A DNA stretch of 52,173 nt from an uncultured Pseudomonadales bacterium (GTDB lineage Bacteria > Patescibacteriota > Microgenomatia > UBA1400 > PJMF01), in contig CAYQLH010000002.1 of the NCBI GenBank assembly GCA_964418385.1, positions 1 to 52,173 on the forward strand. The letters are read 5' to 3'. The notes below the pieces were generated by a model. It was given only the letters and a program-made list of their open reading frames with translations. It did not search any database and was not told where the DNA came from. A program made the translations under genes and the position numbers. Shown here piece after piece: positions 5,980 to 45,274 of the stretch; position 1 is the stretch's first letter, and each line of letters begins with the position of its first letter.

Positions 5980-5986
5980 GAATAAA

Positions 5987-6015
5987 GTTTTACACTGAGT
6001 TTTCCACAATGTCAA
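5987..6015 (-). promoter_or_regulatory. dnaA promoter with a DnaA box inside the spacer
   Basis: Minus strand reads TTGACA (6015-6010), a 17-nt spacer, TAAAAC (5992-5987), 7 nt, then ATG 5979. The spacer contains TGTGGAAAACT, seen as AGTTTTCCACA at 5998-6008 on the plus strand. This layout is classic for autoregulation. Confidence 0.55.
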
Positions 6016-6139
6016 GATGGAATTTTGAGGCACGATTTTGATAAATGTAGGCAAAAAATAATTGATATAGCGTTAAAATTTGATAACTAGAAAAGAAATG
6101 GCGCTATAATGTCGCGGCAAATGCGGGAATTAAATGACT

Positions 6140-8311: not shown

Positions 8312-8320
8312 ATGTTCCTT

Positions 8321-9013: not shown

Positions 9014-9035
9014 ATAATATTTCTAGTATAACAAA

Positions 9036-10313: not shown

Positions 10314-10392
10314 AGTAATTCGCAGGTTCATTATAGCATAGAAAGCGTGGAGGAGCAAATTTGCTATCAACCGAATAACTGAAATCTAAATG

Positions 10393-12168: not shown

Positions 12169-12174
12169 ATGTGT

Positions 12175-12245
12175 ATTATATATGATAAGCAGGAGAAAAT
12201 AAAGGTATAAGTGGTAGGCGAAAACACGATAAGGTGTGTTACAAT
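12175..12245. promoter_or_regulatory. Divergent leaderless-type promoters of the VanW/T4SS operon (-) and the GT39-like gene (+)
   Basis: The minus-strand TATAAT is ATTATA at 12175-12180, 6 nt from ATG 12168. The plus-strand TGtTACAAT is at 12237-12245, 7 nt from ATG 12253. Confidence 0.55.
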
Positions 12246-12252
12246 ATGGCGA

Positions 12253-19214: not shown

Positions 19215-19664
19215 TTAGTTTTCTTCTGGCTCGCCATCCCAAAAAAACTTGATGACGAAACTTTTCGTTTCACCGGGAACGAGCCAGTCGACGACGATGA
19301 CGGCTTGTGGCTCGAACCAGTTACAACCGGCATTGCCGATGGTTTCTTTTACCCAGTGCATCATCTTGGCGGCGTCTTTGCTCCAGTCGACATCACACAT
19401 TTTAAACGTAGTGCTTTTAATCAACTGGAGGTCGAGCTTGCGATTGGCGACGCAGAGCACGCCGGCATCATCCACAAAAACAGGAATTTCGTCGAGGAAA
19501 TCTTGCATAAAAACTTCTGTTGCTTCCTTGACGATTTTCCCCGCTAGGGTTACGACGGCTGGCGCGATTTCCCTGGGCACCTTAACTTCCTGGTGCGAAA
19601 TCGCGTGCTCACAAGCCCAGCGGAATATTAAAGCCCGCTTGAGCGCATCGTTGCTAACACACAT
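19215..19664 (-). CDS. Hypothetical protein (149 aa), no recognised family
   Basis: Clean ORF with normal composition, convergent with radA. No motif recognised. Confidence 0.45.
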   Translation of the reverse strand: MCVSNDALKRALIFRWACEHAISHQEVKVPREIAPAVVTLAGKIVKEATEVFMQDFLDEIPVFVDDAGVLCVANRKLDLQLIKSTTFKMCDVDWSKDAAKMMHWVKETIGNAGCNWFEPQAVIVVDWLVPGETKSFVIKFFWDGEPEEN

Positions 19665-19922
19665 CTTATTATCTCCTCCTTACGTATTAAAGAACCACAA
19701 CTGTGTATAATTATAACATATTATATCGGATTTGTCAAGCTTAGCCTTGAAAAATTATTATAGGCAAATCGTGCGGAAATAGTGAAAATTACCGCAAAAA
19801 AGCGCGGAAATAGTTTTCTAGGCGTAAATTATTGTTGCAGATTTTGCAATAATAGACCGATAAGAATTTATTATTTCTGCAAAAATTGCGGGGAAAACAT
19901 GAGAAACCATTTAAAAAATTAG

Positions 19923-20306
19923 CTAAAATGGAAGAAGGAATATGAGGGAGTAAAAACATGGTAAAGCCAAGATTAATACTTCGCTGATAATATAAAACTT
20001 TATGATTTGAGCGAAAGTGAAGCGCTTTTTCGTAAAATGAGAACGAATTGTAATGACTAGAGTAATGATGGCAACTATGACCCAGCCTATAATATGATAA
20101 TGAACTAGCAGATCTCGAATAATCGTTGAACCTAGACCATTTAGACTGTCGGGAGAAAATAATGTACATTGAATATATCTACAATCTGGTAATTTTGCGA
20201 GGGCAATAAGAACAGTGAGAATTTCGAGAAGGCCAATTATTAGCCAAGTGCGGTATGGATGGATGGCGGGTTTTTGGGAAGTCTGGATGCTTTTGTTTTT
20301 GGGCAT
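19923..20306 (-). CDS. Hypothetical small membrane protein (127 aa, ~3-4 TM), AT-rich
   Basis: Hydrophobic segments are TWLIIGLLEILTVLIALA, IIGWVIVAIITLVITI and IISEVLILALPCFYSLIFLL. Embedded in AT-rich non-coding DNA. Confidence 0.4.
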   Translation of the reverse strand: MPKNKSIQTSQKPAIHPYRTWLIIGLLEILTVLIALAKLPDCRYIQCTLFSPDSLNGLGSTIIRDLLVHYHIIGWVIVAIITLVITIRSHFTKKRFTFAQIIKFYIISEVLILALPCFYSLIFLLPF

Positions 20307-20507
20307 GTGTGTATTGTACGAAAGATGTTCTTTCTTGTTAAGATAATGTATATCAAAGTGTTTAAATAGTGCTACAATCTAGTACCTATTATATCACAAT
20401 ACAGGCTATTTGTCAAGATGGCTAGTAATAAATAGCATTTAAGGTGAATTTTGGTATCAAATGTGGTATAATGAAACATCTTTAAAATCTAGGTGGAGGT
20501 GATAGCG

Positions 20508-20891: not shown

Positions 20892-20918
20892 GCCCCGGGC
20901 GGAAGTCTGGGGCTTTTT
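20892..20918 (+). terminator. Intrinsic terminator after the 124-aa gene; its U-tract overlaps the stop codon of the convergent VirD4-like gene
   Basis: GCCCC (20892-20896), a 12-nt loop, GGGGC (20909-20913), then TTTTT (20914-20918). Confidence 0.5.
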
Positions 20919-23124
20919 ATCCGACTTTTTTGGTGGCGTAGCGCTCGCGGGAAACGCGGATGACTTTTTCGCGGTTGTGATTGCTGCTGGCAGCTGGCGG
21001 CAAGGTGTAGGCAGGGAAGGGGTAGGAAATGATGTTGTCGATAGTGATGCGATTGATAATCTGGTGCTTGTTGAGACCCACAAGATCCTCGGCGGTGTAT
21101 TTGCCGCCATATTCCTTGGAGAAAACCTCGGCGTCTTCAGAGCCCATGACGAAGGAGACGACGGAGCCGCAGTTGCCAAAAATCGCTTTTTGTACTTCTT
21201 CGGGAATCTGGGCGACGTATTGATTGGCGAGGATAAGATTGAGGCGGTATTTACGGGCTTCTGATAGTATTTTATTGAAAGAGGTAGTGGCAAAATTTTG
21301 GAATTCGTCGACGTAGAGGTAAAAATCGCGACGTTCTTCCTCAGGCATGTTGACGCGCCCCATGGCAGCAAGTTGAATTTTGGTGATTAGCATAGCGCCC
21401 AAAAGGGTGGCGTTGTCTTCGCCGAGTTGGCCTTGAGAGAGATTGACAAGGAGGATTTTGCCTTCATCCATGATTTGCTCGATACTAAAACTGCTCCAGT
21501 CTGAGTTGACAACGTTGCGAACGAGCGGGCTCGAGACAAATTGACCGATTTTGTTTAAAATTGGCGCGACGGCCTCATTTTTCATCCGGTCTTGAAGAGG
21601 CTCGAATTCACCAAGCCAAAAATTGCGCAAGACCGGATCGTCGACTTGTTCGAGGACGCGTTTGCGGAATTCTTTATCGGTAAAAAGAGTGATAATATCG
21701 CCCAATTTGGCGTTTTCCATTTGCAGGAGAGTGAGGAGGGCGTTGCGCAAGAAATGCTCGAGTCTGGGGCCCCAGGAGTATTCGTAGAGCTTGTGGAAAA
21801 TGGAAATAATGCCAGAAGCAATGAGCTCGCGGTGCTCGACGTTGCGACCTTCAAAAAGGTTAATTTTGACGGTGCGGTCACCGTCGGCAGGGTTGAAAAA
21901 GACAACGTCGTTGATGCGGCTGGCGGGAATGTAGTCAAGGAGAGTATCGATGGCATCGCCGTGAGGATCAATGAAACAGAGGCCTTCATTGTTGCGCAGA
22001 TCATTGATGGCCATGTTACACAGCATCGTGGATTTACCGGTGCCGGTTTTTCCGATGACATACATATGACGGCGGCGATCGGCGCGGTGAATGCCGTATT
22101 TGCGGGTTTCGTTTTTAAAGACGGTTTCGGCAAAAACGTTGATTTCTTTTTTGATTTCTGGTGGATCTTGTTTGGAGACAGTGGGTAGATTGTCTGGCGG
22201 CTCGCCGAGGAGATTTTTACCCCAGGTGAGGTTGGGAATGGTGGAAAGGGTTTTATTGGGGAAATGATAAAGGCTGGCGAGCTCAAAAATGGAGAGGTGG
22301 AAACTGGAGTGAGCGACGAGGCGACGCTCGAGCATGGCATCGAGGCGGTGGGTGGGTGGGAGAAGCGAGGTGACGCGGCGGAGAGAATTGGAATCTTCTT
22401 TGCGGAAAGCATCGAAAGCGTCTACAATGCCGTCGAGGAAAAGTTTGGCGTTATCGCGGGAGTCAGAAATAACGGCGAGGTTGAGATTGACGCTGAGCGT
22501 TTTGGCGTGAATTTTGGACTCGATGAAAGATTTGGCACCTGGAGCGAGGCTGAGAGTGGAAACTTGACCATCACCGGAGATTTGAGGGGTGGGGCTGAGC
22601 AGGCGTTCACAACTGGATTTCCAGGCGTCGCTAGAGTGACCGATGATAAGCTGGATGACGGCGCGGTCTTGAGGACCGCCTTTGGAAAGGTGAGAAAGTA
22701 AGGGTGAGAGCGAGTCGGCATCACCAAATTCACGATAATCTTTAAGCGGGTAGCAATCGCCGTTTTGCAGGGTGAGGGCGGCACTATCGAGGACAAGCTG
22801 GTCTGATTTATAATTTGGTTGCGCCTGAGGGTGGAAGTAAAGTAGATAATCAGCAGTACGGACAGGTTTGATGACCGCTTCAGGAAATTGAGCACCGATA
22901 GCACTTTTGAGGTATTCGATCAAACGATCTGGTACGTAAAGATAAAAGCTGATGTTTTGGTGTTCAAGTGCGATTTCACAAGAGAGGGTTTCGTTTTTGT
23001 GGATCAGCTTGTTCCAGAAATCATCGTGAAAAGAGGGGATGGTGGAAAAGAATTCCATCATGGCATCGGCGTTTTTGAGACTGTCACGGCCAGTATTGAT
23101 CTCAAGCAAGGAATGGTTTTGCAT
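20917..23124 (-). CDS. virD4: VirD4/TraG/TraD-type type IV coupling-protein-like P-loop ATPase (FtsK/HerA superfamily) lacking N-terminal TM segments
   Basis: Walker A is MYVIGKTGTGKSTML, followed by CFIDPHGDAID, Walker B FYLYVDEFQNF, and ARKYRLNLILANQYVAQI. The N-terminal ~330 aa are soluble. ATG 23124 lies 10 nt after TATAAT (plus-strand ATTATA, 23135-23140); the alternative start is GTG 23130. Confidence 0.8.
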   Translation of the reverse strand: MQNHSLLEINTGRDSLKNADAMMEFFSTIPSFHDDFWNKLIHKNETLSCEIALEHQNISFYLYVPDRLIEYLKSAIGAQFPEAVIKPVRTADYLLYFHPQAQPNYKSDQLVLDSAALTLQNGDCYPLKDYREFGDADSLSPLLSHLSKGGPQDRAVIQLIIGHSSDAWKSSCERLLSPTPQISGDGQVSTLSLAPGAKSFIESKIHAKTLSVNLNLAVISDSRDNAKLFLDGIVDAFDAFRKEDSNSLRRVTSLLPPTHRLDAMLERRLVAHSSFHLSIFELASLYHFPNKTLSTIPNLTWGKNLLGEPPDNLPTVSKQDPPEIKKEINVFAETVFKNETRKYGIHRADRRRHMYVIGKTGTGKSTMLCNMAINDLRNNEGLCFIDPHGDAIDTLLDYIPASRINDVVFFNPADGDRTVKINLFEGRNVEHRELIASGIISIFHKLYEYSWGPRLEHFLRNALLTLLQMENAKLGDIITLFTDKEFRKRVLEQVDDPVLRNFWLGEFEPLQDRMKNEAVAPILNKIGQFVSSPLVRNVVNSDWSSFSIEQIMDEGKILLVNLSQGQLGEDNATLLGAMLITKIQLAAMGRVNMPEEERRDFYLYVDEFQNFATTSFNKILSEARKYRLNLILANQYVAQIPEEVQKAIFGNCGSVVSFVMGSEDAEVFSKEYGGKYTAEDLVGLNKHQIINRITIDNIISYPFPAYTLPPAASSNHNREKVIRVSRERYATKKVG

Positions 23125-23169
23125 AAACACTGGTATTATAACATAGTTTCAGGCAGAAACCGGTCGACA

Positions 23170-26100
23170 TTAGTTGAGCGGTTGCCAGGAGTATAAACCG
23201 GTGTTGAGGTCAGCTTGACAAGCGTAGAAGGCTTTGTCGTTGGAATCGTAGTAAATCTTGCCTTCTGTATCGACAGCACAAACGCCCGCTGTCGTTTCGT
23301 CGATGGGTGAAAGCTGGAGGGCACCATCCACCTTGACATTGCCAGCGACTTCCAAAGCTTCCGTCGGGTTGGCAGTGCCGATACCGATGTTGCCGTTGGG
23401 GAGAATCGTGAAGCGAGTGGTGGCGGTGTTGTCGGCGTTGAGAGTGCGGATGTTGAAGCTGGTCTGGCTAGCGAGATCAAGATTGTTCTTCTTGGTGAGG
23501 CTATCCATAAAGATGTTGCCACGAACCATAAGGGTGGGCGTACCGTTACCGGCGAGATTGAGGAAACCAATGCTGGCACTGGAAGTAGCTTCGCCGCCCA
23601 AGAGGATGTCGCTGTTGGTGGTGGGGAAGATGACACCGGCGACTTGTTTCCAGAGCGATTGGGTGCCGTTGCTAGTGACGCCAGAATCGGTGACATAATT
23701 GATGTTGATCTGACCAATCTTAACTTCTTGGCTTTGTTTGCTGGCAGTCTTGATACGAATGGTGAGTCGATCACCAGCTTTGAAACCGAGATTGGAGAGT
23801 TGCTCGCCAGTGATGGTGGCAGGAGTGGTACCGAGGGCAGCGCTCATCCAAGAAGCAGCGGTTTCGCTGACAAGATTGCTGGCGACAGCGCCAATTTCAG
23901 TGCCGCCGCGATAGACTTCAAGCTGGACGTTGTTGAGGCTGGGATCGGTGCTGGTGGTAGCGTAATCGAGAGTGATCCCATTGGAACTCCACGAGGTGAA
24001 ATTTGAAGGTAGAGTGAGATTGATGGTGGCGTCGAAATCATTGAGGACAGCTAGATCTGCTGAAGACCAGGAATAGTAGTTGAAGCGGTAATTTTCACCG
24101 ACGGTTTGTGTGCCAGCAGTGAAAGTGCCGTTGTTGTGCGAGCCGTCGCCGCTGATAACGGCACCAGCGTACTCGGCGTCGAGAACAAGGCGACAAACGT
24201 TACCAGTGCAGTTGCTGGAGTTGGCGAGGGAGACAGCGTTTTCACCAGTGATACCGGTGGGTACAAAATCCGTGCCGTTGTAAATATAGAGCACTTGACC
24301 GACAGAATCGTAAACAATATCGCCCATTTGCTGACCCGCTTTGGCGTAGGGTTTGCCCACGGAAGTAGGCACCTGCAAACCTTGATTGTCGCCATAAGAG
24401 GTGTTGATACGGCCTTGAGCGGTAATGTTGTCGCTGGCGACAATCGTACCGTTGTCGGCAAATTGTAGTGAGAGACGACCATTGGTGTAGATGCTACCAG
24501 CAGAAGGCATGCGGGTGTGCGTGACGAGATCGAAGTCGTTGTAAGTATCGTAGACGGTGGTGGTATTGTCCGTGAGTTCGCTTACCAGGTAGTAATCATC
24601 AGAGTTGGAGAGGGAGCGGTAGAGACGGCGGGCGGTAACGTCCGGAGAAGAGGCGAGAGGAATATTGGTGATCTTGATGACGCGACCATCACCGGTGACG
24701 GAGATAGAATCGCTGGCGCTGGAGGGCGCGGACTCGCCTTTGGAAGTGACGTAAGTAACACGGTAGCGATATTTGCCGGTGCTGGAAAGATTGGAAGGCG
24801 TAGTGGACAAGTCTTCATCTGGAGTGATGTCGTAAGTGGAGGTAGAGGTGTTGTCACGAATGGTTTTGACGAAATAATAGGTATCGCCACCATCGCGTGT
24901 GCGGTAGAGATTGCGAGCAGTGACAGCGGGGTGAGAAGAGGTAGCGAGATCGTTGATGACAACAACTTTACCGGAGGTGCTCAATTTCAGCTCAGTCGCG
25001 GGACTAAGTGACGTTTGGGAACCATCAGAGGTGACGAAAGTGTAGGCGTATTTGTAAGTGCCGGGTTGAATTTTGGCATCAGGTTGGTCTTGAGTGGAGA
25101 CCTTGAGAGTGGATTCCGGAGAATCGATGCGGCGAAGGGCGTTTTGATTGACGATGTCTTCGCTGAGTGTCATTTTGCTGATATCTGGACCAGAGGCGTA
25201 TTCAAAAGCAATACTACCGTTGTTGATAGTTAGTTTTTGCTTGGTTTTGTTGGTGCCAAGACCGAGATTGCCATTTTTGTCGACTACAAGCGAGTTCCAA
25301 ATGGTTTGCGCGGCGGAGGAGCGGAAAGTAAGGCCGTCGTCACTATAAGTAATAGTGGAGTTTTTGCCGTTGAGACGGAGGTTGCCGTTGAGATTGAGGT
25401 TGGCAGATTGGGTGGCGGAACCGACATAAAGTTCGCCGTTGCCTGGAAGGAGATAGATATCGCCATTTTGTGAGACAAGATTGAGACCACCAACGTTAAT
25501 AATAGAAGTGTTGTTGGTGCCAAATTTGAGATTACCGTTGCTGTCGACGACAGGAATAGTATTGGCCGTGGCCGAAGCGCTGGCAGAGTAACCTTGCAGA
25601 GTTTCGCTATTAAGAGCAAAAGGAACAGATTTGATCAACTGGCGAGGGAAGAGCACTTCGTCATCGACAGTAATTTGTAGCCAGATATTGGAGTTTTCGG
25701 CAAAAATAGTGCCCAAAGTCTGACCACAATTGTAATCATCGTGACCATCGCCTTTGCCAGCACCGAGGTTAACAGTGAAAATACCAGAGCTACTGGGTTT
25801 GACGGTACAAAAACCACTATCCCAGAGAACCTCGCCACCAATGGGAGGAGGCGTGGTACCACCGCTAGTATTGTAAAGAGTGAAACGCATTTGTTTGGGA
25901 GCGGTGATGGATTTTTGGTCATAGTCGCTCAAGCGACCCTGGAAAGTCAGAATACGTGGCGGGGCGACAGCGGCTTGAGGGTCAGGGTTCTCAGCTGCAA
26001 AGTCGAGATTGGCGTTTTTGATAAGTTGGTTAATGCCAAAAATACAAGCGCCAACGCTAAAAACGCTAACAGCAAAAACTGGTAAATTGCGGGTAAGATT

Positions 26101-26652
26101 GAAGGTTTTGTCTGCATCGGCTGAAGATTGGAAGGCGCTGGTGTCGATTTTTTCGCCGGTAGTGTTGGTCATGCGTTTGGCAAAAAGTCGTTCATGATCC
26201 AGATAGTCGCTGGTGTCGCGAATTACTTGGGCTTCCTGGGCATGGACGCTGCCTTGTAAAATGGCCTCAATGCTACCCAATTGTTTGACGCGGGCGGCGA
26301 GCTGACTGCTTGTGGGACGGTCACCGAGGATATTTTGGATGTCACCCAATTGTTTAACGCGTGGACGTTTGATGTGGCGTACGCCTGACGCGTCAACTTT
26401 GCTACTGTTTGTTGTTGCCAATTTATTTGTTGTGTTCATAACTTTTTTTTTAGATTTTGTTTTCTTGGCAGAAGGTTTGGCACTTGCTTTACCACTCGCA
26501 GCTTTAACTTTGCTTTTGCTCGTTTTACTCGCTGGTTTTGATTTGAGGTAGGAGTTGAGCAATTGTCTGCGTTTGGTCGACGACGACTTGGTCGTGGCTC
26601 GCACAACTCGTCTGCCTTTTGCCGGTGTTTTACATTTCTTTTTGTCAGCCAT
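23170..26652 (-). CDS. Giant (1160-aa) type-II membrane surface protein: Lys-rich cytoplasmic tail, one TM, ~950-aa beta-rich tail-fibre/adhesin-like ectodomain
   Basis: aa 1-100 are K/S/A/T-rich (KKKCKTPAKGRR...KTSKSKVKAASGKASAKPSAKKTKSKKK). The TM is ~aa 190-210 (LPVFAVSVFSVGACIFGINQLI). The ectodomain is T/S/N/G-rich with two ~85-aa repeats and ends ...IGIGTANPTEALEVAGNVKVDGALQL...YYDSNDKAFYACQ, a motif style I associate with tail-fibre-like proteins. Confidence 0.75.
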   Translation of the reverse strand: MADKKKCKTPAKGRRVVRATTKSSSTKRRQLLNSYLKSKPASKTSKSKVKAASGKASAKPSAKKTKSKKKVMNTTNKLATTNSSKVDASGVRHIKRPRVKQLGDIQNILGDRPTSSQLAARVKQLGSIEAILQGSVHAQEAQVIRDTSDYLDHERLFAKRMTNTTGEKIDTSAFQSSADADKTFNLTRNLPVFAVSVFSVGACIFGINQLIKNANLDFAAENPDPQAAVAPPRILTFQGRLSDYDQKSITAPKQMRFTLYNTSGGTTPPPIGGEVLWDSGFCTVKPSSSGIFTVNLGAGKGDGHDDYNCGQTLGTIFAENSNIWLQITVDDEVLFPRQLIKSVPFALNSETLQGYSASASATANTIPVVDSNGNLKFGTNNTSIINVGGLNLVSQNGDIYLLPGNGELYVGSATQSANLNLNGNLRLNGKNSTITYSDDGLTFRSSAAQTIWNSLVVDKNGNLGLGTNKTKQKLTINNGSIAFEYASGPDISKMTLSEDIVNQNALRRIDSPESTLKVSTQDQPDAKIQPGTYKYAYTFVTSDGSQTSLSPATELKLSTSGKVVVINDLATSSHPAVTARNLYRTRDGGDTYYFVKTIRDNTSTSTYDITPDEDLSTTPSNLSSTGKYRYRVTYVTSKGESAPSSASDSISVTGDGRVIKITNIPLASSPDVTARRLYRSLSNSDDYYLVSELTDNTTTVYDTYNDFDLVTHTRMPSAGSIYTNGRLSLQFADNGTIVASDNITAQGRINTSYGDNQGLQVPTSVGKPYAKAGQQMGDIVYDSVGQVLYIYNGTDFVPTGITGENAVSLANSSNCTGNVCRLVLDAEYAGAVISGDGSHNNGTFTAGTQTVGENYRFNYYSWSSADLAVLNDFDATINLTLPSNFTSWSSNGITLDYATTSTDPSLNNVQLEVYRGGTEIGAVASNLVSETAASWMSAALGTTPATITGEQLSNLGFKAGDRLTIRIKTASKQSQEVKIGQININYVTDSGVTSNGTQSLWKQVAGVIFPTTNSDILLGGEATSSASIGFLNLAGNGTPTLMVRGNIFMDSLTKKNNLDLASQTSFNIRTLNADNTATTRFTILPNGNIGIGTANPTEALEVAGNVKVDGALQLSPIDETTAGVCAVDTEGKIYYDSNDKAFYACQADLNTGLYSWQPLN
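24526..25062 (-). repeat. Two tandem ~85-aa protein repeats inside the giant protein
   Basis: aa 531-615 read GTYKYAYTFVTSDGSQTSLSP...VVVINDLATSSHPAVTARNLYRTRDGGDTYYFVKTIRDNTST..YDITPDEDL. aa 626-709 read GKYRYRVTYVTSKGESAPSSA...VIKITNIPLASSPDVTARRLYRSLSNSDDYYLVSELTDNTTTVYDTYNDFDL. Confidence 0.8.
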
Positions 26653-26684
26653 AGCATTAGCTGTCTTATTTTTTCTCGAACATA

Positions 26685-26713
26685 ATGTTACTATAAATTT
26701 TTGAAGTTGTCAA
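26685..26713 (-). promoter_or_regulatory. Candidate sigma70-type promoter of the giant-protein/VirD4-like operon
   Basis: Minus strand reads TTGACA (26713-26708), 17 nt, TAACAT (26690-26685), about 32 nt upstream of ATG 26652. Confidence 0.45.
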
Positions 26714-27150
26714 TTGTTTTTGTGGGGTAATTTTAACATTGTTTATTTTTGCTTGGGTTTGTTAAAAAAATATATGCCTGGTATCGCCTGGAAAAAATCT
26801 TTAAAAAGCGAAGAACAATCAGTTCTTTGTATTTTTAATTTTGCTTTATATATCAAGAAATAATTACTTTATTATTAATAATATATCCTATAATAATTAT
26901 TTCTTTTAAATTTTATTATCTTATAATATTTTTTTCCACACATTTACGTCTGGAAATATGCGAAATTGAGTATAACTTTAGTGCGTGAAAGTGGCGGTGG
27001 AAAATTTGGCAAAATTCACACCAAAAAATTGGTATAATTTGATCTATAAGTTATGATAAATTGCTACTTTACAATTGACGCGAGTATGATAATATACGGG
27101 TATCGTTGAGCCTCTACTCACTCATTTGAGAGCATGCTCTCGATCGCGAA

Positions 27151-27200
27151 AGAGCATTGTTATACGTGGACTGTCCAGCGATAATAATGCTTTTTCTTTT
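27151..27200 (+). terminator. Long hairpin plus U-tract (intrinsic terminator or attenuator) in the intergenic region upstream of the sortase promoter
   Basis: AGAGCATTGTTAT (27151-27163) pairs with ATAATAATGCTTT (27181-27193) over 13 bp, including 2 G.U pairs. It encloses a second small stem (CG..GGA/TCC..CG) and is followed by TTCTTTT. Confidence 0.55.
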
Positions 27201-27241: not shown

Positions 27242-27269
27242 TTGACAAATCAGAATAATGTGGTATAAT
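27242..27269 (+). promoter_or_regulatory. Near-consensus promoter of the sortase gene (leaderless type)
   Basis: TTGACA (27242-27247), 16 nt including TGg, TATAAT (27264-27269), 8 nt, then ATG 27278. Confidence 0.7.
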
Positions 27270-27277
27270 ATAGGCTT

Positions 27278-28150
27278 ATGGTTGCGATATTGGAAGAGTG
27301 TAAAATAGTTTGCAGTCCATCGCCTGATACGAGGGCGAGTGTGCTTTGTTTTGCGCGGGTGCGTAGCCAATTTTACAATTACGAGCGTTTCGCGTATGCG
27401 CCGCAAGTGGTAGAGGCGGCGTTGGCAAATTATCGGCTACCGCAAGTGCGACGTTTTACTTGGACGGACGCAGTGCTGAATTTCATGATTGTTTTGGCCG
27501 CGGGGACGATTTTATTGTATGTTTTACCGGGAATGTGGAATCGTTTGATACCAGGTCATTCTCTTAGTCGTGAGTCACAGGTAATTGAGGAAACAGTACA
27601 ATCGCTTGTCAGTGCGACAGCGGTGGGCGATGGCGAGAAACTGACTGAGGCGTGGAATTTACCGGAAGGTTGGCAGCGTGGCAGTCATGAAAGTAGCGAT
27701 GCTCATCGCGTGGCGCCGGAATACGATTTGTCGCTTCCTGAAGGTCGCTGGGTAGTTAATAAAGATATTGGTTTGCAAGCACCCATTTATACCAACGAAA
27801 GCGTGGAAAACGTGGCGGAAGCGGATGCACTTTTGGAAAGAGGCATTTACATGTATCCACAGTATGATAGCATTGGTTGGAGCGGTCGTGAAGTGATTTT
27901 GGCGGGGCATCATTACAACATGACGATTTCCGATCAAAAAGCGGCGCAATCGTTTCAAAATTTGAATAAATTGCAGGTGGGCGACAAGGTGCAGATTGTG
28001 GATGACTACAAGATTTGGACGTATGAAATTTACAAAATTGAAGAATCGACGGAAATTACGGAGGAAAATCCAGATTTGATGATGTACACTTGCATTTACT
28101 GGTGGGACGCGAAATTGCGACTTTTTGTGTACGCACGGATAGTGGAGTAA
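27278..28150 (+). CDS. Sortase-family transpeptidase (membrane anchored)
   Basis: TM is AVLNFMIVLAAGTILLYVLPGMW. Catalytic His context is VILAGHHYN, Cys context is DLMMYTCIYW (TLxTC-like), and Arg context is LRLFVYARIV. Confidence 0.8.
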   Translation: MVAILEECKIVCSPSPDTRASVLCFARVRSQFYNYERFAYAPQVVEAALANYRLPQVRRFTWTDAVLNFMIVLAAGTILLYVLPGMWNRLIPGHSLSRESQVIEETVQSLVSATAVGDGEKLTEAWNLPEGWQRGSHESSDAHRVAPEYDLSLPEGRWVVNKDIGLQAPIYTNESVENVAEADALLERGIYMYPQYDSIGWSGREVILAGHHYNMTISDQKAAQSFQNLNKLQVGDKVQIVDDYKIWTYEIYKIEESTEITEENPDLMMYTCIYWWDAKLRLFVYARIVE

Positions 28151-28277: not shown

Positions 28278-28604
28278 ATGCAACAATACGATACACGGAT
28301 CCAAGTGCGACTGGAAGAGAATTTAAAAAGGCAAGCGGAAAAAGTTTTTGACGGTTTGGGTGTGGATTTGCCGACGGCAATCCGTGTGTTTTTGCGCCAA
28401 AGTGTGATTCAAAACGGTTGGCCGTTTGGGATGATGGGTTTGGACGCGTTGCAAGATACGTGCACCAATACGGTGACACGTGAGCTTTTGGTGAGTGACG
28501 GGAGAGCTTACGAAGTGATGCGGACGCAGAAAACCTGTCAGTTGGCATCGGCGCGAACACGGGCCTTTTTGACGAGCGAGCAAGCAGAAAAACAGCAAAA
28601 GTGA
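28278..28604 (+). CDS. RelB/DinJ-family antitoxin-like protein (RHH), no adjacent toxin
   Basis: The N-terminus TRIQVRLEENLKRQAEKVFDGLGVDLPTAIRVFLRQSVIQNGWPF matches the DinJ pattern (i.vRld..lK..a..v...lGl..s.ai..fl.q......lPF). The C-terminal 55 aa are unassigned. Confidence 0.65.
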   Translation: MQQYDTRIQVRLEENLKRQAEKVFDGLGVDLPTAIRVFLRQSVIQNGWPFGMMGLDALQDTCTNTVTRELLVSDGRAYEVMRTQKTCQLASARTRAFLTSEQAEKQQK

Positions 28605-28666
28605 TCAGTTTTTTCTTGCGCATAAATACTGGTGTATAGTGTGAATATTGTTAATTTGTATAAATT

Positions 28667-29110
28667 ATGTCTACATTAGCGAATAAAAAGTTGGTGGTGC
28701 TGGCAAGAGCGCGACACAATGGTGAGCGGCGGTCTTTGGCTTTGGGGCAAGTGCAAGCGGGGTTTGCGACGTGGGCAGAGGATGAGATTGAGAAAGATTT
28801 AAGCATTGATGATTATTTAGTGGAGCATCCAGTGGGGACTTTTTTGGTGAAGGTGGCCGGAGAATCAATGATTGAAGCGGGAATTTTGCCTGGTGATGTG
28901 CTGGTGGTAGACCGGACGTTGACGGGTAAAAACGGGCAAATCGTGATTGCAGTGGTGGATGGCGATTTGACGGTGAAGCGTTTGGCGCAAGAAGATGGAC
29001 GAGTGGTGTTGCGAGCGGAAAACCGGAAATTTCCCAAAGTGATCATTCCAGAGGGGGCAGAGGTGGAAATCTGGGGTGTGGTGGTGGGCGTGGTGCGCAA
29101 AATGGCGTGA
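28667..29110 (+). CDS. umuD: UmuD-like S24 self-cleaving peptidase (error-prone polymerase V accessory subunit)
   Basis: Ala-Gly cleavage site context is QVQAGFATWAED, Ser nucleophile is AGESM, and Lys is TVKRL. It is colinear with E. coli UmuD (...[29 protein letters not shown]...IVIAAVDGEFTVKKL...). Confidence 0.8.
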   Translation: MSTLANKKLVVLARARHNGERRSLALGQVQAGFATWAEDEIEKDLSIDDYLVEHPVGTFLVKVAGESMIEAGILPGDVLVVDRTLTGKNGQIVIAVVDGDLTVKRLAQEDGRVVLRAENRKFPKVIIPEGAEVEIWGVVVGVVRKMA

Positions 29111-29112
29111 AA

Positions 29113-29145
29113 CAATTACAAATTCTAAATTGTAAATTATAAATT
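29113..29145 (+). repeat. AAATTNN heptad tract (5 phased copies) immediately after the umuD stop
   Basis: (C/A)AATT occurs at 29113, 29120, 29127, 29134 and 29141, exact period 7 (caattac aaattct aaattgt aaattat aaattaa). Similar phased tracts are at 31604-31615 and 41117-41154. Confidence 0.8.
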
Positions 29146-29154
29146 AAGTGGCTG

Positions 29155-29279
29155 ATTGCGTCATCACTCTACCGAAAAAAGTGCGAAAGTGTGAAAAATG
29201 GTGTGCGAGAATTGCGGCTGTATAAAGCCTAAATTTGACTTTGTACTCCCTATGGAGCACAAGTAAAAGGCGAAAATTG
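29155..29279 (+). repeat. 125-bp intergenic direct repeat, copy A
   Basis: attgcgtcatcactctaccgaaaaaagtgcgaaagtgtgaaaaatggtgtgcg...aagcctaaatttgactttgtactccctatggagcacaagtaaaaggcgaaaattg. I count 13 mismatches in 125 against 31631-31755, with no gaps. Confidence 0.9.
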
Positions 29280-29328
29280 GCAGTTAGAGCTTGACGCGGT
29301 TTGGCTTGAATTATAAGACGCTGGCTGC

Positions 29329-29357
29329 TTGACAATCGGAGAGAGTAAAAGTACAAT
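29329..29357 (+). promoter_or_regulatory. Consensus-like promoter of the 716-aa membrane protein gene
   Basis: TTGACA (29329-29334), 17 nt, TACAAT (29352-29357), 9 nt, then GTG 29367. Confidence 0.65.
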
Positions 29358-29366
29358 TAAGCTGTT

Positions 29367-31517
29367 GTGGAAAACAATTTATTATTGCAAATTATTGCGG
29401 CTGTTTTTGATATGATTTGGCTTGTGGGAATGATTGTGGCTTTGGTGTGGGGTAGCGGTAAGAATCGCGAGTGTCAGCGTTTGCGTCGTGAAATTGCTAA
29501 GCTGCAAGATGATCTGGCAGCAGTTCAACAGGCGGTTGCGTCTACACATGATGACGAACAGAGTCGCCCGGTAATATCAGTACCGGACGTGCCAGCTGCG
29601 GCCTTAGCTGAAAAGACGAATCCGGTGCCAGCGGTCGCTAAGCCAACACCAAAAATTTTGGTGCCAGGGATGGATTTTGCTCCTGAAGGTCCGCGTGGGA
29701 TGCTGGCCTTGTTTTACTTGGGGGCGTTTTTTGTGATTGCGGCGGCGTGGGCGTTTATTGCGAGCGACTATGGAGCATTGATGCCTGGAGTGAAGACGCT
29801 GGCTTTGGTGGCGGTGACGATGATATTTGCTCTGGGTGGGTATTACTTGGCGCGCCAATCGCGTTGGCGCGTGGCGGGCATTGTGTACGTGGGGATTGCT
29901 TTGATTTTTATTCCTACTGATGGGGTGGCTTATTTCCTTTTTCACGAAGGCGCAGCCAGTGGGACTGGGGTGTGGCTAGTGACGTCGTTGGCTTTTGTGA
30001 CGATGGCGTGGCTGTTTTACCGAAGTGTGCTCAAAAATCAACTCATGCTACAGTTTATCTTGACTGGACTTTTGTCAACGCTGTGGGCGGTGGTGCGCAT
30101 GATGGGAGCGGCGACGCTGACTCCATACTGCGTTGTGGCTTGCGGTTATGGCTATGGGCTTTATTATTTATCGGCGAAATTGGCTGCCAACCAAAAGGCT
30201 TTCGCTGGGTGCGGGACATTATTTGCTCTGGGCGGTGCCGCTTTGGGCGTGGCGGTGAGCTTGTTGACCTGCGTGGGTTACATGCTGACTAATAGTTTGA
30301 GCCAACGCTTCCAGTTGGGACTGGAAACTAAATCCCTACTGGCGGAGCAGTGGTCGGCGATTGCTTTTGCGCTGGCGGGGTTGCTGATGTGCGCTTGGCG
30401 TTTTGCACGGGAGCAGCGCGATGGCGATTGGCACGGAGTGATAATCGCTTTTTTGGTGACGGTGTGGTCACTGATGGTGGTGGCAGGCGTGGATTATGAT
30501 TGGTGGTACCTGGTGATTATGGTTTTGGCGTATGGCGTCAGCGCGATTCTCAATTTAACTCCATGGGCGGACGGCTTGTCACCAGTGCAAAAACGAATTA
30601 CTGCGGGGTGGGCAGCGGCTTTGGCGATCTGGGGAGGTTTTGGTGGGATGGTGATCAATATGCCTTGGGAGCACAGTGTCGCTAATGATTGGTCAGCGCT
30701 GGCTTACACGGTGGCGGCGATGGTGTATTTTGGCGGCAATTATGTGTTGACGCACCGCTTGATTGAGTTGACTGCAAGCGTGCTGTGGGGGACGCAAAGT
30801 GTGGCTGTCGTATTGATCCTTACGCACGCGCCATTGGCTGCTTGGGTGGGCGCAGGGTTTATTTTGAGTTTGGCCGCGGCAAGTGGGTGTTTGCTGCTGC
30901 CGGAGGGGGCGTACAAGCGAGTTTTGTACTGTTATACACTGGTGGTGTCAATGATAGCCTGGGTGCTGAGTATGGCGATTACTGGCGATGGGGCGTGGTT
31001 GATTGCAATCGTGATGGTGGTCAACGTCCTGGCTTTGTATTTACTGGTGGCAAAATACGCGCGCCGGCGCAATAAATACGAATTGGTAAGTTTTTTGTGG
31101 GTAGTGTGGTGGTGGTTTGTGGCTGACAGGCTGGGTTTGGACAGCACACAGTGGTATTCACAAGCGGCAGCGTTGTACTTGCTAGTGGTGGCTTACGGGC
31201 GGTGGTTGCATGAGGAAACGCGAGGAAGCGCTTTGCGAGTGGCGCTGGCAGCGGCGATTTGGAGCGCGCTTTGCTGGTTTGGTGAGCCAAAAGTGGGGCC
31301 GATGATGACGGCTGGTGTGGGTGTGTTGACAGTTTTGTGGGGTCAGTGGTGGCGACAACAGAAGTTGCGACGCGTGGGCGTGGTGATTGTCGTGGTGGGC
31401 ATTTTGGCACAGACCTCATCAATCCTTTTCCACTTGCCGGTGTGGCTGTGGTATGCCTTGATGGCGGTGGGCATTTTGGGCGGAGCGATGTATTATTTGC
31501 GTCGCGAGCAAAAATAA
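29367..31517 (+). CDS. Large polytopic membrane protein (716 aa, ~18-20 TM, W/A/L/G-rich), unknown function
   Basis: Long ORF with almost continuous hydrophobic segments after an N-terminal coiled segment (CQRLRREIAKLQDDLAAVQQAV). Visibly more GC-rich than its neighbours. No family recognised. Confidence 0.65.
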   Translation: MENNLLLQIIAAVFDMIWLVGMIVALVWGSGKNRECQRLRREIAKLQDDLAAVQQAVASTHDDEQSRPVISVPDVPAAALAEKTNPVPAVAKPTPKILVPGMDFAPEGPRGMLALFYLGAFFVIAAAWAFIASDYGALMPGVKTLALVAVTMIFALGGYYLARQSRWRVAGIVYVGIALIFIPTDGVAYFLFHEGAASGTGVWLVTSLAFVTMAWLFYRSVLKNQLMLQFILTGLLSTLWAVVRMMGAATLTPYCVVACGYGYGLYYLSAKLAANQKAFAGCGTLFALGGAALGVAVSLLTCVGYMLTNSLSQRFQLGLETKSLLAEQWSAIAFALAGLLMCAWRFAREQRDGDWHGVIIAFLVTVWSLMVVAGVDYDWWYLVIMVLAYGVSAILNLTPWADGLSPVQKRITAGWAAALAIWGGFGGMVINMPWEHSVANDWSALAYTVAAMVYFGGNYVLTHRLIELTASVLWGTQSVAVVLILTHAPLAAWVGAGFILSLAAASGCLLLPEGAYKRVLYCYTLVVSMIAWVLSMAITGDGAWLIAIVMVVNVLALYLLVAKYARRRNKYELVSFLWVVWWWFVADRLGLDSTQWYSQAAALYLLVVAYGRWLHEETRGSALRVALAAAIWSALCWFGEPKVGPMMTAGVGVLTVLWGQWWRQQKLRRVGVVIVVVGILAQTSSILFHLPVWLWYALMAVGILGGAMYYLRREQK

Positions 31518-31630
31518 AAGTTAAACTTCGATATCAGGTTTGTTTTAAGCGTGGGAAGGCAAATACGGCCTCAGGTTGTTTGGGGGATTAGAAATCCTTC
31601 TAAAAATTAGAAATTATAAAAAAGGCGGGA

Positions 31631-31755
31631 ATTGCGTCATCACTTTACCGAAAAAAGTACGAAAGTATGAAAAATGGTGTGCGCAAATTAGAGCTATTTT
31701 AAGCCTAAATTTGACTTTGTACGCCCTGTGGAGCACAAGTAAAAGGCGAAAATTG
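31631..31755 (+). repeat. 125-bp intergenic direct repeat, copy B
   Basis: Same element as 29155-29279, ~90% identical. It lies between the membrane protein gene and umuC. Confidence 0.9.
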
Positions 31756-31799
31756 AGAATTTGCCTTTGGGTTTTGGTCGGTGTGATACAATAACCGGT

Positions 31800-33119
31800 A
31801 TGAGCAATTTGTGGGCTTTGATTGACGCCAATAACTTTTTTGTGTCGTGCGAGCGCGTTTTTCGTCCAGATTTAAGCGAGAAACCAGTTTTGGTTTTGTC
31901 TTGTAATGACGGTTGTGTGGTGTCGCGATCAGCAGAGGTGAAAGCTTTGGGTATACCCATGGGGGCGCCTCGTTTCCAGATAGAGGCAGAGATTAAAAGA
32001 AATGGTATTGAGTGTTTTTCTAGCAATTTTCGCTTGTATGCAGATTTGTCTTCGCGGATGATGCGCTTGATTGGCGAGGTCGTGGGAAGTGAAAACCAGG
32101 AAATTTATTCAATTGACGAATGCTTTGTGCGGTTGCCGCTGGATCGAGAATGCGATTGGCAAGCCTGGGGTGAGCGTTTGCGAGGGCAGATTTTACAGTC
32201 CTTGGGAATTCCGGTGACGGTGGGTGTGGCGACGAGCAAAACGTTGGCAAAGTTGGCGACGGAAATTGCCAAAAAGGATGTTTTTGGCAAGGGAGCGATG
32301 GCGTGGATGCCTGGAAATATAGAGTGGCAAGAGCGTTATTTGCGACCGGCGCCGATTATGACGGTGTGGGGTTTGGGTCAGGCGACAGTGCATAAACTGC
32401 TGGCAAAACGGGTGGCAACAGTAGGGGATTTTTTGGCGTGGGAGAGCAAGCGAGTGCGGCAATATTTGGGTTTAAACGGTGAGAAAACTTGGCGAGAATT
32501 GCAGGGTGAAAGCTGTATTGAGCTGAAAGAAGCCAAGCCGGCACATCGTCAGATCGGACGGAGCCGTTCTTTTGGGGAAGCGGTGTACACACGGGAGGAA
32601 TTGGCGTACGCGGTGAGCGAATATTTGAGCGCGGCGGCGGGGGCGCTGCGACGACACGGCTGGCGAGCGTCCATGGTGACAGTGAGGATTCGCTCAGGCA
32701 GATATGTGCCGCGAGAACAGTTTTATGCGGCAGCGTGGAGCGTGGGTTTGGAGGAGTCAACTAGCTTTTTGCCAGATCTGGCGTCGGCGGCGATGAAGGC
32801 GCTGGCGCAAATTTACCGACCAGGAGTGGCGTACAAAAAAGCAGGGGTGATTTTAAGCGAAATTGAAAGCGAGGCCGCGTGGCAGCCACAGCTTTTGGAG
32901 CCAGACAAACCAGGACCAGAGGAGGAACAAAAGCAAAAAGTGAGCGCGGCGGTGGAGCAGATTAACCAGCAGTGGGGAGGGTGGGGAGTGACTTTGGGGT
33001 GGGCAGGTGGCGGCAAGAATGCGGGCGGCAAGGCAGTGTGGCAAAAATGGCGTTCGCGGGCGACACGGCGTTCGCCGCAGTATACCTCGCGCTGGGAAGA
33101 ACTACGCCGGGTGCAATAA
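31800..33119 (+). CDS. umuC: Y-family translesion DNA polymerase, UmuC-like
   Basis: MSNLWALIDANNFFVSCERVFRPDLSEKPVLVLSCNDGCVVSRSAEVKALGIPMGAP...YSIDECF is colinear with E. coli UmuC (MFALCDVNAFYASCETVFRPDL...VVVLSNNDGCVIARNAEAKALG...YSIDEAF). TGaTACAAT 31784-31792 lies 7 nt before ATG 31800. Confidence 0.9.
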   Translation: MSNLWALIDANNFFVSCERVFRPDLSEKPVLVLSCNDGCVVSRSAEVKALGIPMGAPRFQIEAEIKRNGIECFSSNFRLYADLSSRMMRLIGEVVGSENQEIYSIDECFVRLPLDRECDWQAWGERLRGQILQSLGIPVTVGVATSKTLAKLATEIAKKDVFGKGAMAWMPGNIEWQERYLRPAPIMTVWGLGQATVHKLLAKRVATVGDFLAWESKRVRQYLGLNGEKTWRELQGESCIELKEAKPAHRQIGRSRSFGEAVYTREELAYAVSEYLSAAAGALRRHGWRASMVTVRIRSGRYVPREQFYAAAWSVGLEESTSFLPDLASAAMKALAQIYRPGVAYKKAGVILSEIESEAAWQPQLLEPDKPGPEEEQKQKVSAAVEQINQQWGGWGVTLGWAGGGKNAGGKAVWQKWRSRATRRSPQYTSRWEELRRVQ

Positions 33120-33316
33120 ATGGAGTAATTTTTGTGTACGAAATATTAAAATAATGCTTAAAAATAGGTAAAAATTTGTGTAAAAATGTGATATAAATTG
33201 GGTCGTGCGAGCGTAGGCGCTTTTTTGAGATCATTGGCGGTGGGGAATTAACGCTTTAATAAGCGCAAACAAGTGGCGCAAAATCTGACTGATGAAGAAA
33301 TTGTTAAACACAATCC

Positions 33317-45246: not shown

Positions 45247-45274
45247 TTTTCGGTTAAATGAACACTTAGAATTT

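Follow-up and report, generated by a model that had tools for sequence, protein, structure and literature searches.

Two adjacent genes near the replication origin

A tail-fibre-like membrane protein (below, the fibre) and an ATPase of the VirD4/TraG type are encoded next to each other in a 52,173-nt stretch of DNA (positions 1 to 52,173 of contig CAYQLH010000002.1, assembly GCA_964418385.1; hereafter the window) from an uncultured bacterium of the Microgenomates type, which belongs to the Candidate Phyla Radiation (CPR; Patescibacteria). An earlier note, made from the letters of the DNA alone, had proposed that the two genes form an undescribed system in which the basic cytoplasmic tail of a surface fibre is physically coupled to the ATPase. 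Most of the features that the note had described proved correct, but the physical coupling of fibre and ATPase is unsupported: on balance we favour the reading that the locus consists of two separable, broadly familiar units, which are neighbours by descent and not a demonstrated machine.

The window is chromosomal and lies near the replication origin, with dnaN at 2768-3883 and dnaA at 4483-6054. Both genes are on the minus strand: the open reading frame (ORF) of the fibre spans 23170-26652 and encodes 1160 aa and the ORF of the ATPase spans 20917-23130 when read from a GTG codon. The database cluster of the ATPase starts at the ATG at 23124, which gives a protein of 735 aa and is probably the start codon; the stop codon of the fibre gene is 45 nt away from this ATG, the spacing given in the earlier note, and 39 nt from the GTG. 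No terminator-like site was found between the two genes in a pattern scan. The GC skew of the plus strand is about 0.2-0.36 across the window, independent of gene orientation, and the values of the fibre gene and the ATPase gene (0.23 and 0.27) are like those of the surrounding region, indicating long residence of both genes.

The window also carries genes for a type IV secretion system (T4SS) of the monoderm type at 6140-12348, with VirB4, a TrsD-like protein, a PrgI-like protein and VanW; its VirB4 (6140-8311) belongs to the CD1110 family (372 bits, cutoff 325). The end of this cluster at 12348 was measured to be 8.6 kb from the stop codon of the ATPase gene, close to the 8.7 kb given in the earlier note; the two are separated by radA, transferase genes and an SBP gene. 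Domain scans of large ORFs in the window turned up no relaxase domain. Other genes of the window are a sortase gene at 27278 and ComEA/ComEC at 44578-47597.

Architecture of the fibre-like protein

The fibre gene and the parts of its product are:
26685..26713, minus strand: promoter-like site 5' of the gene (TTGACA, 17 nt, TAACAT; consensus scan, 10/12, a pattern match only)
23170..26652, minus strand: fibre gene, a 1160-aa type II (N-in, C-out) tail-fibre-like surface protein, from the ORF and about 20 homologues
26086..26652, minus strand: cytoplasmic tail, aa 1-189, predicted to be disordered (predicted local distance difference test, pLDDT, <35) and by composition lysine-rich in this genome
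26020..26085, minus strand: single transmembrane helix, aa 190-211, LPVFAVSVFSVGACIFGINQLI (hydropathy peak 1.93; modelled helix aa 190-213)
25633..25959, minus strand: cell-proximal beta-sandwich, aa 232-340 (pLDDT ~70-85), the most widely matched region
24517..25071, minus strand: two tandem beta-rich repeats, aa 528-712 (self-alignment; pLDDT 80-93)
23683..24135, minus strand: jelly-roll resembling carbohydrate-binding modules (CBMs), aa 840-990 (pLDDT 80-92; Foldseek, with a probable assignment of the matches to this stretch)
23173..23388, minus strand: C-terminal tip, aa 1089-1160, with the IGIGT...VDG motif and Cys1125/Cys1145 (motif position, conservation)

The protein has a single hydrophobic segment (aa 190-211), while all other 19-aa windows reach 1.5 or less on the Kyte-Doolittle scale, and all full-length homologues have a transmembrane helix at the corresponding place. 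Of the N-terminal 189 aa, 29 are lysine and 14 arginine, versus 14 acidic residues (D/E), resulting in a net charge of +29; lysine makes up 27.5% of the first 80 aa. On the other side of the helix, the large ectodomain is rich in T, S, G and N and carries two repeats of ~85-90 aa (aa 528-712), which were identified by a local self-alignment score of 166, compared to 34 +/- 6.6 for shuffled sequences, and the motif IGIGTANPTEALEVAGNVKVDG at aa 1089-1110. Three cysteine pairs in the ectodomain (282/309, 815/820 and 1125/1145) are invariant across the homologues and, together with the basic N-terminus, are consistent with an N-in, C-out topology. The reversed topology that the earlier note had read from the sequence, with a Lys-rich N-terminus of ~190 aa, one helix and a repeat-containing ectodomain ending in a C-terminal motif, is thus borne out.

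A word-indexed search identified about 20 close homologues with 41-67% identity and lengths between 867 and 1248 aa (most 1100-1250 aa), which align to the fibre over most or all of its length. That the 1160-aa ORF might be an assembly chimera or a series of fused fragments, a flaw that had been considered from the start, is a negligible possibility: the homologues are of similar length, come from independent assemblies and share the cysteine pairs and the domain order, the same slot is occupied in more than 15 contigs and the GC skew is like that of the flanks. A chimera is rejected on the grounds of this conservation.

The cytoplasmic tail has no domain match in Pfam and is modelled with pLDDT <35; a folded cytoplasmic domain is absent. 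It carries the motif LLNSYL (aa 31-36) and two copies of KQLG[DS]IxxIL (aa 100-109 and 123-132). Its composition is variable among homologues, with lysine plus arginine making up fractions between 0.09 and 0.23, and in the two sister loci described below the tail is acidic (L090) or proline-rich (L091). The basic tail had been put forward as the element that couples the fibre to the ATPase, and this suggestion is not supported, as the charge is not conserved.

The AlphaFold2 model of the monomer has a mean pLDDT of 56. Confidence is high for the beta-sandwich (aa 232-336), the repeat region (aa 490-715) and the jelly-roll (aa 840-990). Neither the tail nor the shaft-like stretches aa 337-486, 718-830 and 991-1117 were modelled reliably, with pLDDT <50 for the shafts. 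In Foldseek searches of the PDB, domain-sized matches were to CBM61 (template modelling score, TM-score, of 0.63 for the target), CBM6, CBM30 and CBM22 as well as to domains of Cry toxins and to accessory domains from phage tailspikes. Searches of BFVD returned tail-fibre, collar/J-fibre, collagen-repeat, C1q and S74 proteins with E-values down to 2e-13 and TM-scores of ~0.1. These matches to tail-fibre proteins and CBM-like domains agree with the fibre-like character ascribed to the protein before. At the level of sequence profiles, the fibre has no match in Pfam or PHROG, including S74, Collar and the PHROG tail-fibre families. A phage origin of the gene was rejected on the absence of a PHROG match. 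The fibre was also rejected as a sortase substrate: its C-terminus (...CQADLNTGLYSWQPLN) has no LPXTG motif, no hydrophobic segment and no basic tail.

The ATPase combines a DUF8128 domain with a VirD4-type motor

The features of the ATPase gene are:
23135..23143, minus strand: extended -10 element TGTTATAAT, located 4 nt (GTG) or 10 nt (ATG) upstream of the ATPase start (sequence reading)
20917..23124, minus strand: ATPase gene, 735 aa, with DUF8128 N-domain, VirD4/TrwB-type P-loop motor and no transmembrane helix (Pfam, homologues, AlphaFold2, Foldseek)
22135..23124, minus strand: DUF8128 (PF26449) N-domain, aa 1-330, alpha/beta fold (Pfam on homologues; pLDDT 80-95)
22030..22053, minus strand: Walker A, GKTGTGKS, aa 358-365 (invariant in an alignment of 14 orthologues)
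21292..21318, minus strand: Walker B region, LYVDEFQNF, aa 603-611 (positions nearly all invariant in the same alignment)

The ATPase matches the Pfam families TrwB_AAD_bind (37.6 bits, cutoff 20.5) and TraG-D_C (32.3 bits, cutoff 22), typical of type IV coupling proteins (T4CPs), and both Walker motifs are intact. DUF87 is borderline (24.6 bits, cutoff 23.2) and weaker than the T4CP profiles, and FtsK_SpoIIIE stays below the Pfam threshold. The only sequence match in the PDB is TrwB, around Walker A. The NCBIfam T4CP models all score far under their cutoffs, the best being the VirD4-like CD1115 family. There is no segment resembling a transmembrane helix (hydrophobicity maximum 1.24); for the window ATPase (P0001) and most of its orthologues, precomputed Pfam data assign DUF8128 to the N-terminal region. 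The classification as a VirD4/TraG-like ATPase with a soluble N-domain of ~330 aa instead of a membrane anchor, as given in the earlier note, is hence correct.

The AlphaFold2 model of the ATPase (pLDDT 71; 80-95 in the N-domain) consists of an alpha/beta N-domain and a P-loop core, with an all-helical insertion in the nucleotide-binding domain (aa 429-539, pLDDT ~65-89; no separate superposition on TrwB). In a Foldseek search of the PDB, TrwB, DotL and HerA match over the motor alone and come after the full-length VirB4/TrwK matches described below, with HerA ranking lower than TrwB. A HerA or FtsK identity, which would have changed the picture of the protein, is disfavoured, the case for a T4CP from profile scores and from the fold matches to TrwB being the stronger one; neighbours of the NurA or defence-system type were absent in the window and in the compared loci. 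We infer that the ATPase is a hexameric motor of the FtsK/HerA superfamily, from the coupling-protein branch.

VirB4/TrwK proteins are the top Foldseek matches in the PDB and align over the full length (E <=2e-9, 750-880 aligned columns, TM-scores 0.33-0.46), with TrwK of R388 (7o42, 8rtd) as the best, and a common layout of an N-terminal alpha/beta domain and a C-terminal motor would fit. However, Pfam places the motor in the T4CP branch, and the VirB4 families CagE_TrbE_VirB, TraC and P-loop_TraG do not match the ATPase, while they do match the VirB4 of the window. A comparison of DUF8128 with the window VirB4 and TrsD by hhalign detected no similarity, and the DUF8128 profile found nothing relevant among PDB sequences. 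A likeness of DUF8128 to the N-terminal domain of VirB4, as suggested by the model, is unproven, as sequence profiles do not support it.

More than 3055 homologues of the ATPase were found, with 55-60% identity across different groups of Microgenomates and Parcubacteria, and in GTDB, with one genome per species, at least 594 species-level loci in many CPR classes were confirmed, a number that is a lower bound. A recent survey reported 5713 VirD4-type homologues in 2918 Patescibacteria genomes, of which only 148 are near virB4, and discussed that the t4cp homologue is possibly exapted (PMC12102498, Quinonero-Coronel et al. 2025). The window ATPase is a member of this Patescibacteria-wide group of orphan VirD4-type coupling-protein homologues, and like them is encoded away from virB4. 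The claim of an undescribed system thus does not extend to the ATPase, which is known at the level of detection by hidden Markov models; new are the DUF8128 architecture and the modular anchor. No specific publication on DUF8128/PF26449 was found in a literature search.

The membrane anchor comes in three forms. In Berkelbacteria, CPR3, Peribacteria and Peregrinibacteria (for example L030, L031, L052, L067 and L072; L numbers denote compared loci), a transmembrane helix, DUF8128 and the motor are fused in one protein of 850-970 aa. A split form occurs in the Parcubacteria-type Moraniibacteriota, Uhr-, Sung-, Kerfeld- and Andersenbacteria, among others (for example L029, L045 and L064): the motor has a gene of its own, and 3-9 nt upstream of it lies the gene for a ~430-aa protein made up of a transmembrane helix and DUF8128; BLAST confirmed the homology of these split proteins to the N-domain of the window ATPase. 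The third form, fused and without transmembrane helix, is that of Microgenomates-type loci including the window (L006-L019). The N-terminus of the Microgenomates-type ATPase coincides exactly with the start of the region that follows the helix in the other classes, indicating that the missing helix is a lineage-wide loss and not a peculiarity of the locus. At the level of sequence comparison, the conserved partner of the motor is shown to be its own DUF8128 domain and not a fibre, contrary to the suggestion that the fibre is the partner of the ATPase.

Several variations on these forms were observed. Motors of the split form are in some cases extended at the C-terminus, in L029 by a treble-clef zinc finger, and Berkelbacteria have two tandem paralogues of the DUF8128 ATPase (L030, L057). 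In L020 (9992-11799), the orthologue seems to lack most of DUF8128, as a 121-aa ORF corresponds to aa 6-67 and a 481-aa ORF to aa 267-735 of the query; this may be a deletion or a pseudogene. In eight Moraniibacteriota-type loci (L032, L033, L037, L045, L048, L060, L069, L073), a protein of about 130-165 aa with a transmembrane helix and an apparent coiled coil is encoded 3' of the ATPase; by eye, it resembles the cell-division proteins FtsB/DivIC.

Outside the CPR, the Bacillus subtilis plasmid NRS6116_2 (NZ_OX419581.1) encodes a 913-aa relative, which aligns to aa 37-727 of the query with 22.6% identity (E = 1.5e-34). This "DUF87 domain-containing protein" also has no transmembrane helix and is collinear over N-domain and ATPase; its gene lies directly upstream of a replication-relaxation (relaxase-family) gene and of TcpD/TcpE/ATPase transfer genes, in contrast to the window copy, which lies by radA among chromosomal housekeeping genes and at ~21-23% identity is a distant relative. 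Further collinear relatives are found on haloarchaeal plasmids and in SPO1-like Bacillus phages, and PHROG 5156 matches the ATPase core (E = 1e-57). The plasmid and phage relatives support a coupling-type function of the ATPase family, in line with the monoderm (MPF-FATA) ancestry reported for the T4SS of Patescibacteria. The homologues of the Bacillus myophages Shanette, JL, CP-51, vB_BsuM-Goe26, SBSphiC and 0305phi8-36 (H1-H12) are distant (21-23% identity), cover part of the N-domain and the motor and are annotated as hypothetical proteins.

Taken as a coupling protein, the window ATPase shares with VirD4/TrwB/TraG the P-loop motor, the Pfam T4CP matches and the Foldseek matches to TrwB and DotL; its modelled helical insertion at aa 429-539 may correspond to the all-alpha domain of TrwB. 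It differs from them in having a DUF8128 domain of 330 aa in place of the N-terminal transmembrane anchor, in its lack of linkage to relaxase or T4SS channel genes (among the large ORFs scanned) and in its scores far below the cutoffs of the NCBIfam T4CP equivalogs. It is conceivable that both genes are accessories of the T4SS 8.6 kb away, with the ATPase serving as its coupling protein and the fibre as a contact adhesin, as in conjugation systems of Gram-positive bacteria. The monoderm type of the window T4SS, the VirD4 type of the ATPase and the relative in coupling-protein position on the Bacillus plasmid all fit this possibility, and that coupling-protein genes are often away from virB4 (PMC12102498) fits too. 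However, the fibre is present in one clade only while T4SS and ATPase are phylum-wide, the fibre gene is part of a housekeeping gene order and not of a T4SS cluster, the large ORFs scanned contain no relaxase domain, and in Southlakia epibionticum the T4SS genes are essential, while the t4cp homologue is not (PMC12102498). We consider this alternative unlikely.

Fibre and ATPase as neighbours by descent

The pairing of the two genes was examined across related loci. The fibre gene is adjacent to the ATPase gene in the window, in L001-L004, L084-L087 and L092, and by all appearances in eleven metagenome contigs, and in a neighbour-joining tree of the ATPases all fibre-carrying members form one clade. 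A sister group has related proteins in the same slot: L090 encodes a protein of 1189 aa, which is 40% identical over transmembrane helix and ectodomain and has an acidic tail, and L091 encodes a protein of 579 aa that has a proline-rich tail, the transmembrane helix and, as the only part of the ectodomain, the two repeats. The gene order in Microgenomates-type loci is conserved and consists of sortase (divergent), gap, ATPase, radA (convergent), CTP_transf-like, NTP_transf and SBP genes. Loci with ATPases of 58% identity or less have no fibre gene and mostly a non-coding gap of 550-990 nt in its place; a few have an unrelated gene in the slot, encoding for example a PMT_2-like membrane protein or FtsH. 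No conserved ORF that could encode a small transmembrane partner was found in the gap upstream of the orthologues, the only conserved part being a non-coding element. The co-occurrence of the gene pair, on which the proposal of a coupled system had been made to depend, therefore holds throughout one clade and does not extend to the other Microgenomates-type loci. In these, the fibre gene is missing from an otherwise housekeeping gene order.

The ATPase has its own promoter-like element, as the earlier note had stated for the window. In most orthologous loci of Microgenomates, a TGnTATAmT element can be read at 6-17 nt upstream of the ATPase start, whether the locus lacks the large gene (for example L005, L006, L008, L009, L011, L014, L015 and L017) or has it (L002, L004, L086). 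In the window, the -10 elements end 4-10 nt before the start codons of both the sortase gene (27242-27278, plus strand) and the ATPase gene (23124-23143, minus strand). This short spacing, 6-17 nt in most related loci, suggests leaderless or near-leaderless mRNAs.

These data are most simply explained by one insertion of the fibre gene in the ancestor of a gut-associated clade, into the space between the sortase gene with its small-RNA-like element and the ATPase gene. The fibre gene would since have been inherited vertically and changed in a modular fashion, while the ATPase kept its own promoter. Adjacency confined to one clade amounts to one evolutionary event, and its weight as evidence for a common function is small.

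Several points weigh against two merely neighbouring units. Every fibre homologue with enough flanking sequence sits directly upstream of the ATPase, often at a spacing of 2-45 nt, and the short spacing and the absence of a terminator make co-transcription of fibre and ATPase likely; in L001, a separate -10 element of the ATPase is not evident. The tail motifs LLNxYL and 2-4 copies of xLG[DS][LI]xxxL are kept across the clade, which two independent units leave without explanation. An ATPase without transmembrane helix and a transmembrane-anchored fibre family occur in the same class, so that recruitment in trans is conceivable. The support for the fibre part is also limited by the mean pLDDT of 56 of its model and the low TM-scores of the matches to fibres; that the protein forms trimers, is exposed at the surface and binds glycans is deduced from comparisons, and so is the function of the ATPase.

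Some of these points would fit a functional coupling, in which the tail of the fibre recruits the DUF8128-VirD4-like ATPase to the membrane at the attachment site, so replaces the lost helix and ties the surface fibre to a motor for DNA or protein translocation: the strict adjacency with short spacing at every locus of the clade, the missing terminator, and the repeated short motifs in an otherwise variable tail; orthologues of other classes do have the transmembrane helix that the ATPase lacks. Yet the other inspected Microgenomates-type orthologues lack the helix as well and have no fibre gene upstream, and neither has the Bacillus plasmid relative, which also lacks the helix, a fibre as neighbour. 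The ATPase promoter is readable at most orthologous loci, whether or not a fibre gene is present, and members of the wider fibre family are encoded away from the ATPase at the three loci that were inspected. The tail charge, basic in the window, changes to acidic in L090 and gives way to a proline-rich sequence in L091, and the one-clade adjacency counts as one event. A functional coupling is quite unlikely on this evidence.

A mosaic fibre family with a shared anchor

An exhaustive HMMER search with the fibre matched 4733 representative clusters, 684 of them at <=1e-10 and 66 at <=1e-30. Most of the top 150 representatives match just aa ~190-480, a stretch that runs from the transmembrane helix through the proximal domain into the beginning of the shaft. 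The matched proteins include giants of up to 7448 aa, in which 80-450 residues precede the equivalent of this region. Other large proteins match the repeats or the C-terminal tip on their own. Separate matching of anchor, repeats and tip indicates an architecture of a shared anchor with swappable distal parts, and judged by its sequence, the fibre belongs to a large mosaic family with the transmembrane helix and the cell-proximal module in common, and is small among its members. Named members found with the anchor module are mostly from Shapiro-, Roizman- and other Microgenomates-group bacteria. No description of this fibre family was found in the literature searched on CPR tail-fibre-like surface proteins.

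The family includes P0143, P0144, P0145, P0147 and P0233, the loci L081, L088 and L089 and the representatives P0247-P0387. Some distant relatives have folded domains in front of the transmembrane helix: P0143 has a Phage_int_SAM domain (aa 118-200, helix at ~257), P0144 has two SAM-like domains (helix at ~243) and P0233 a MerR-type helix-turn-helix. Many of the giants are annotated as "site-specific integrase, partial" because of such SAM-like or helix-turn-helix domains. Peptidase_S74 is present in some distant relatives, farther along the chain. No ATPase was found near distant fibre relatives at the three loci inspected; a small gene with a Big_1 domain was a recurrent neighbour of distant fibre relatives at three loci.

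The DNA-binding-type folds N-terminal to the transmembrane helix of P0143, P0144 and P0233, together with the tail net charge of +29 of the window protein, raise the possibility that the fibre is a ToxR-like transmembrane contact sensor, whose ectodomain binds a host surface, whose tail relays the signal by binding nucleic acid or a regulator and for which the ATPase is irrelevant. Unlike ToxR-like regulators, the tail of the window protein is disordered, with neither a Pfam match nor a pLDDT reaching 35, folded DNA-binding domains occur only in the distant relatives and the basic charge is not kept among the close homologues. This explanation is very unlikely. A long shot is also the more general idea that the fibres of Microgenomates-type CPR that share the transmembrane helix and proximal domain act as transmembrane couplers between host contact at the tip and cytoplasmic DNA handling, by way of variable cytoplasmic N-termini that are integrase SAM-like domains, helix-turn-helix domains or, in the clade of the window, disordered tails with motifs; in this clade, the tail motifs would then dock the motor that lacks its own helix at the attachment site and the fibre would guide the trafficking of DNA or protein between epibiont and host.

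Among known surface structures, a close parallel is the mosaic adhesive trimer (MAT) fibre of Bdellovibrio (PMC10769870, Caulton et al. 2024), which likewise has an invariable N-terminal proximal module, a shaft and swappable tips, and subtypes with and without S74 occur in both families. A direct connection is limited to a faint, sub-threshold match of the NCBIfam model Bdello_MAT_N to aa 332-359 of the window fibre (20 bits, cutoff 60). In contrast to MAT fibres, which attach to an element on the outer surface of a diderm predator (PMC10769870), the window fibre has its own transmembrane helix and a tail of ~190 aa. Phage tail fibres and tailspikes with the intramolecular chaperone Peptidase_S74 are similar in the BFVD matches, in the CBM-like accessory domains and in the S74 domains of the distant relatives. 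The window fibre differs from these in that it has no S74, Collar or PHROG match, reaches TM-scores of only ~0.1, is chromosomally encoded and has a transmembrane anchor and a tail. With LPXTG adhesins of monoderms, the fibre shares the large size, the beta-rich nature and the neighbouring sortase gene; however, it is anchored at the opposite end and ends with ...LYSWQPLN, with no LPXTG, and the neighbourhood of sortase and ATPase exists in loci with no fibre gene. Altogether, the fibre is a variant of the familiar mosaic tail-fibre-like adhesin.

Proposed functions of the two units

If the two genes are separable units, the fibre would consist, from the inside to the outside, of a disordered tail, the transmembrane helix, the proximal beta-sandwich, a poorly modelled beta-rich shaft, the repeats, the jelly-roll and a tip stabilised by a disulfide bond. 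As a signal-anchor protein, it would enter the membrane through the general Sec/YidC pathway, and its shaft, of which only a monomer was modelled, is probably a homotrimer. The proximal domain would be located at the membrane or the wall, and the CBM-like and tip domains could bind a host or substrate glycan and mediate attachment. Diversification would occur through gain and loss of modules. The short conserved motifs in the tail might bind a cytoplasmic partner.

The ATPase would be the Microgenomates form of the Patescibacteria-wide DUF8128 and VirD4-type ATPase, from which the N-terminal helix was lost. It may still act at the membrane as a coupling or translocation motor, with DUF8128 docking it to the membrane or to a channel; its client is most plausibly the chromosomal monoderm-type T4SS at 6140-12348, but it could also have a derived role. 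Fibre and ATPase are perhaps partly co-transcribed.

If so, the locus is useful mainly for annotation. The orphan coupling-protein homologue of Patescibacteria would be an ATPase composed of DUF8128 and a VirD4-type motor with a modular anchor, which is fused, split or lost, and DUF8128 would be placed in a context that suggests a testable function for it, as an adaptor to the membrane or to a channel. The members of the fibre family are candidate determinants of host recognition in these ultra-small epibiotic bacteria. A true coupling of the two proteins would represent a new way of joining a surface adhesin to a translocation motor, which is unlikely on the present evidence.

Additional features of the window and of related loci

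A small-RNA-like gene lies at 27100-27197 on the plus strand, between the fibre/ATPase gene and the sortase gene, with a core hairpin at 27148-27196. It consists of a promoter (TTTACA, ~17 nt, TAnnAT), a variable first hairpin, a near-invariant hairpin of 21 bp and a U-tract, and has no match in Rfam. The element is also present in L001, L004, L008, L009, L012, L013, L015, L017-L020, L084-L087, L090 and L091, and its orientation relative to the ATPase varies between loci. The 21-bp hairpin is 88-96% identical between genomes with ATPases that are only 55% identical, and RNAalifold predicts 21 pairs, three of which show compensatory changes.

On the 3' side of the ATPase gene, the region 19215-20416 (minus strand) contains two ORFs, a hydrophobic one of 127 aa (19923-20306) and one of 149 aa (19215-19664). 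No homologue of either was found in related loci; both are lineage-specific. Each has a perfect 12/12 consensus promoter plus TG upstream, and the 127-aa ORF has a faint, sub-threshold likeness to the conjugation-system membrane proteins pLS20_p028 and MMCAP2_0566.

Relative to L084, L086 and L090, the window has an insertion of ~8.5 kb between sortase and rho (28278-36009), which encodes a RelB-like antitoxin, an S24 (UmuD/LexA-like) peptidase, a DUF2157 membrane protein, ImpB/UmuC, a protein of 397 aa and an LPD3-domain protein and looks like the remnant of a mobile element. The LPD3 gene (34540-36009) is one of three segments with an exceptionally low GC skew (0.05), the others being 1046-2350 (0.09) and comEC at 45275-46633 (0.13). 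These segments may be recently acquired or inverted, and 1046-2350 may indicate the origin-proximal switch.

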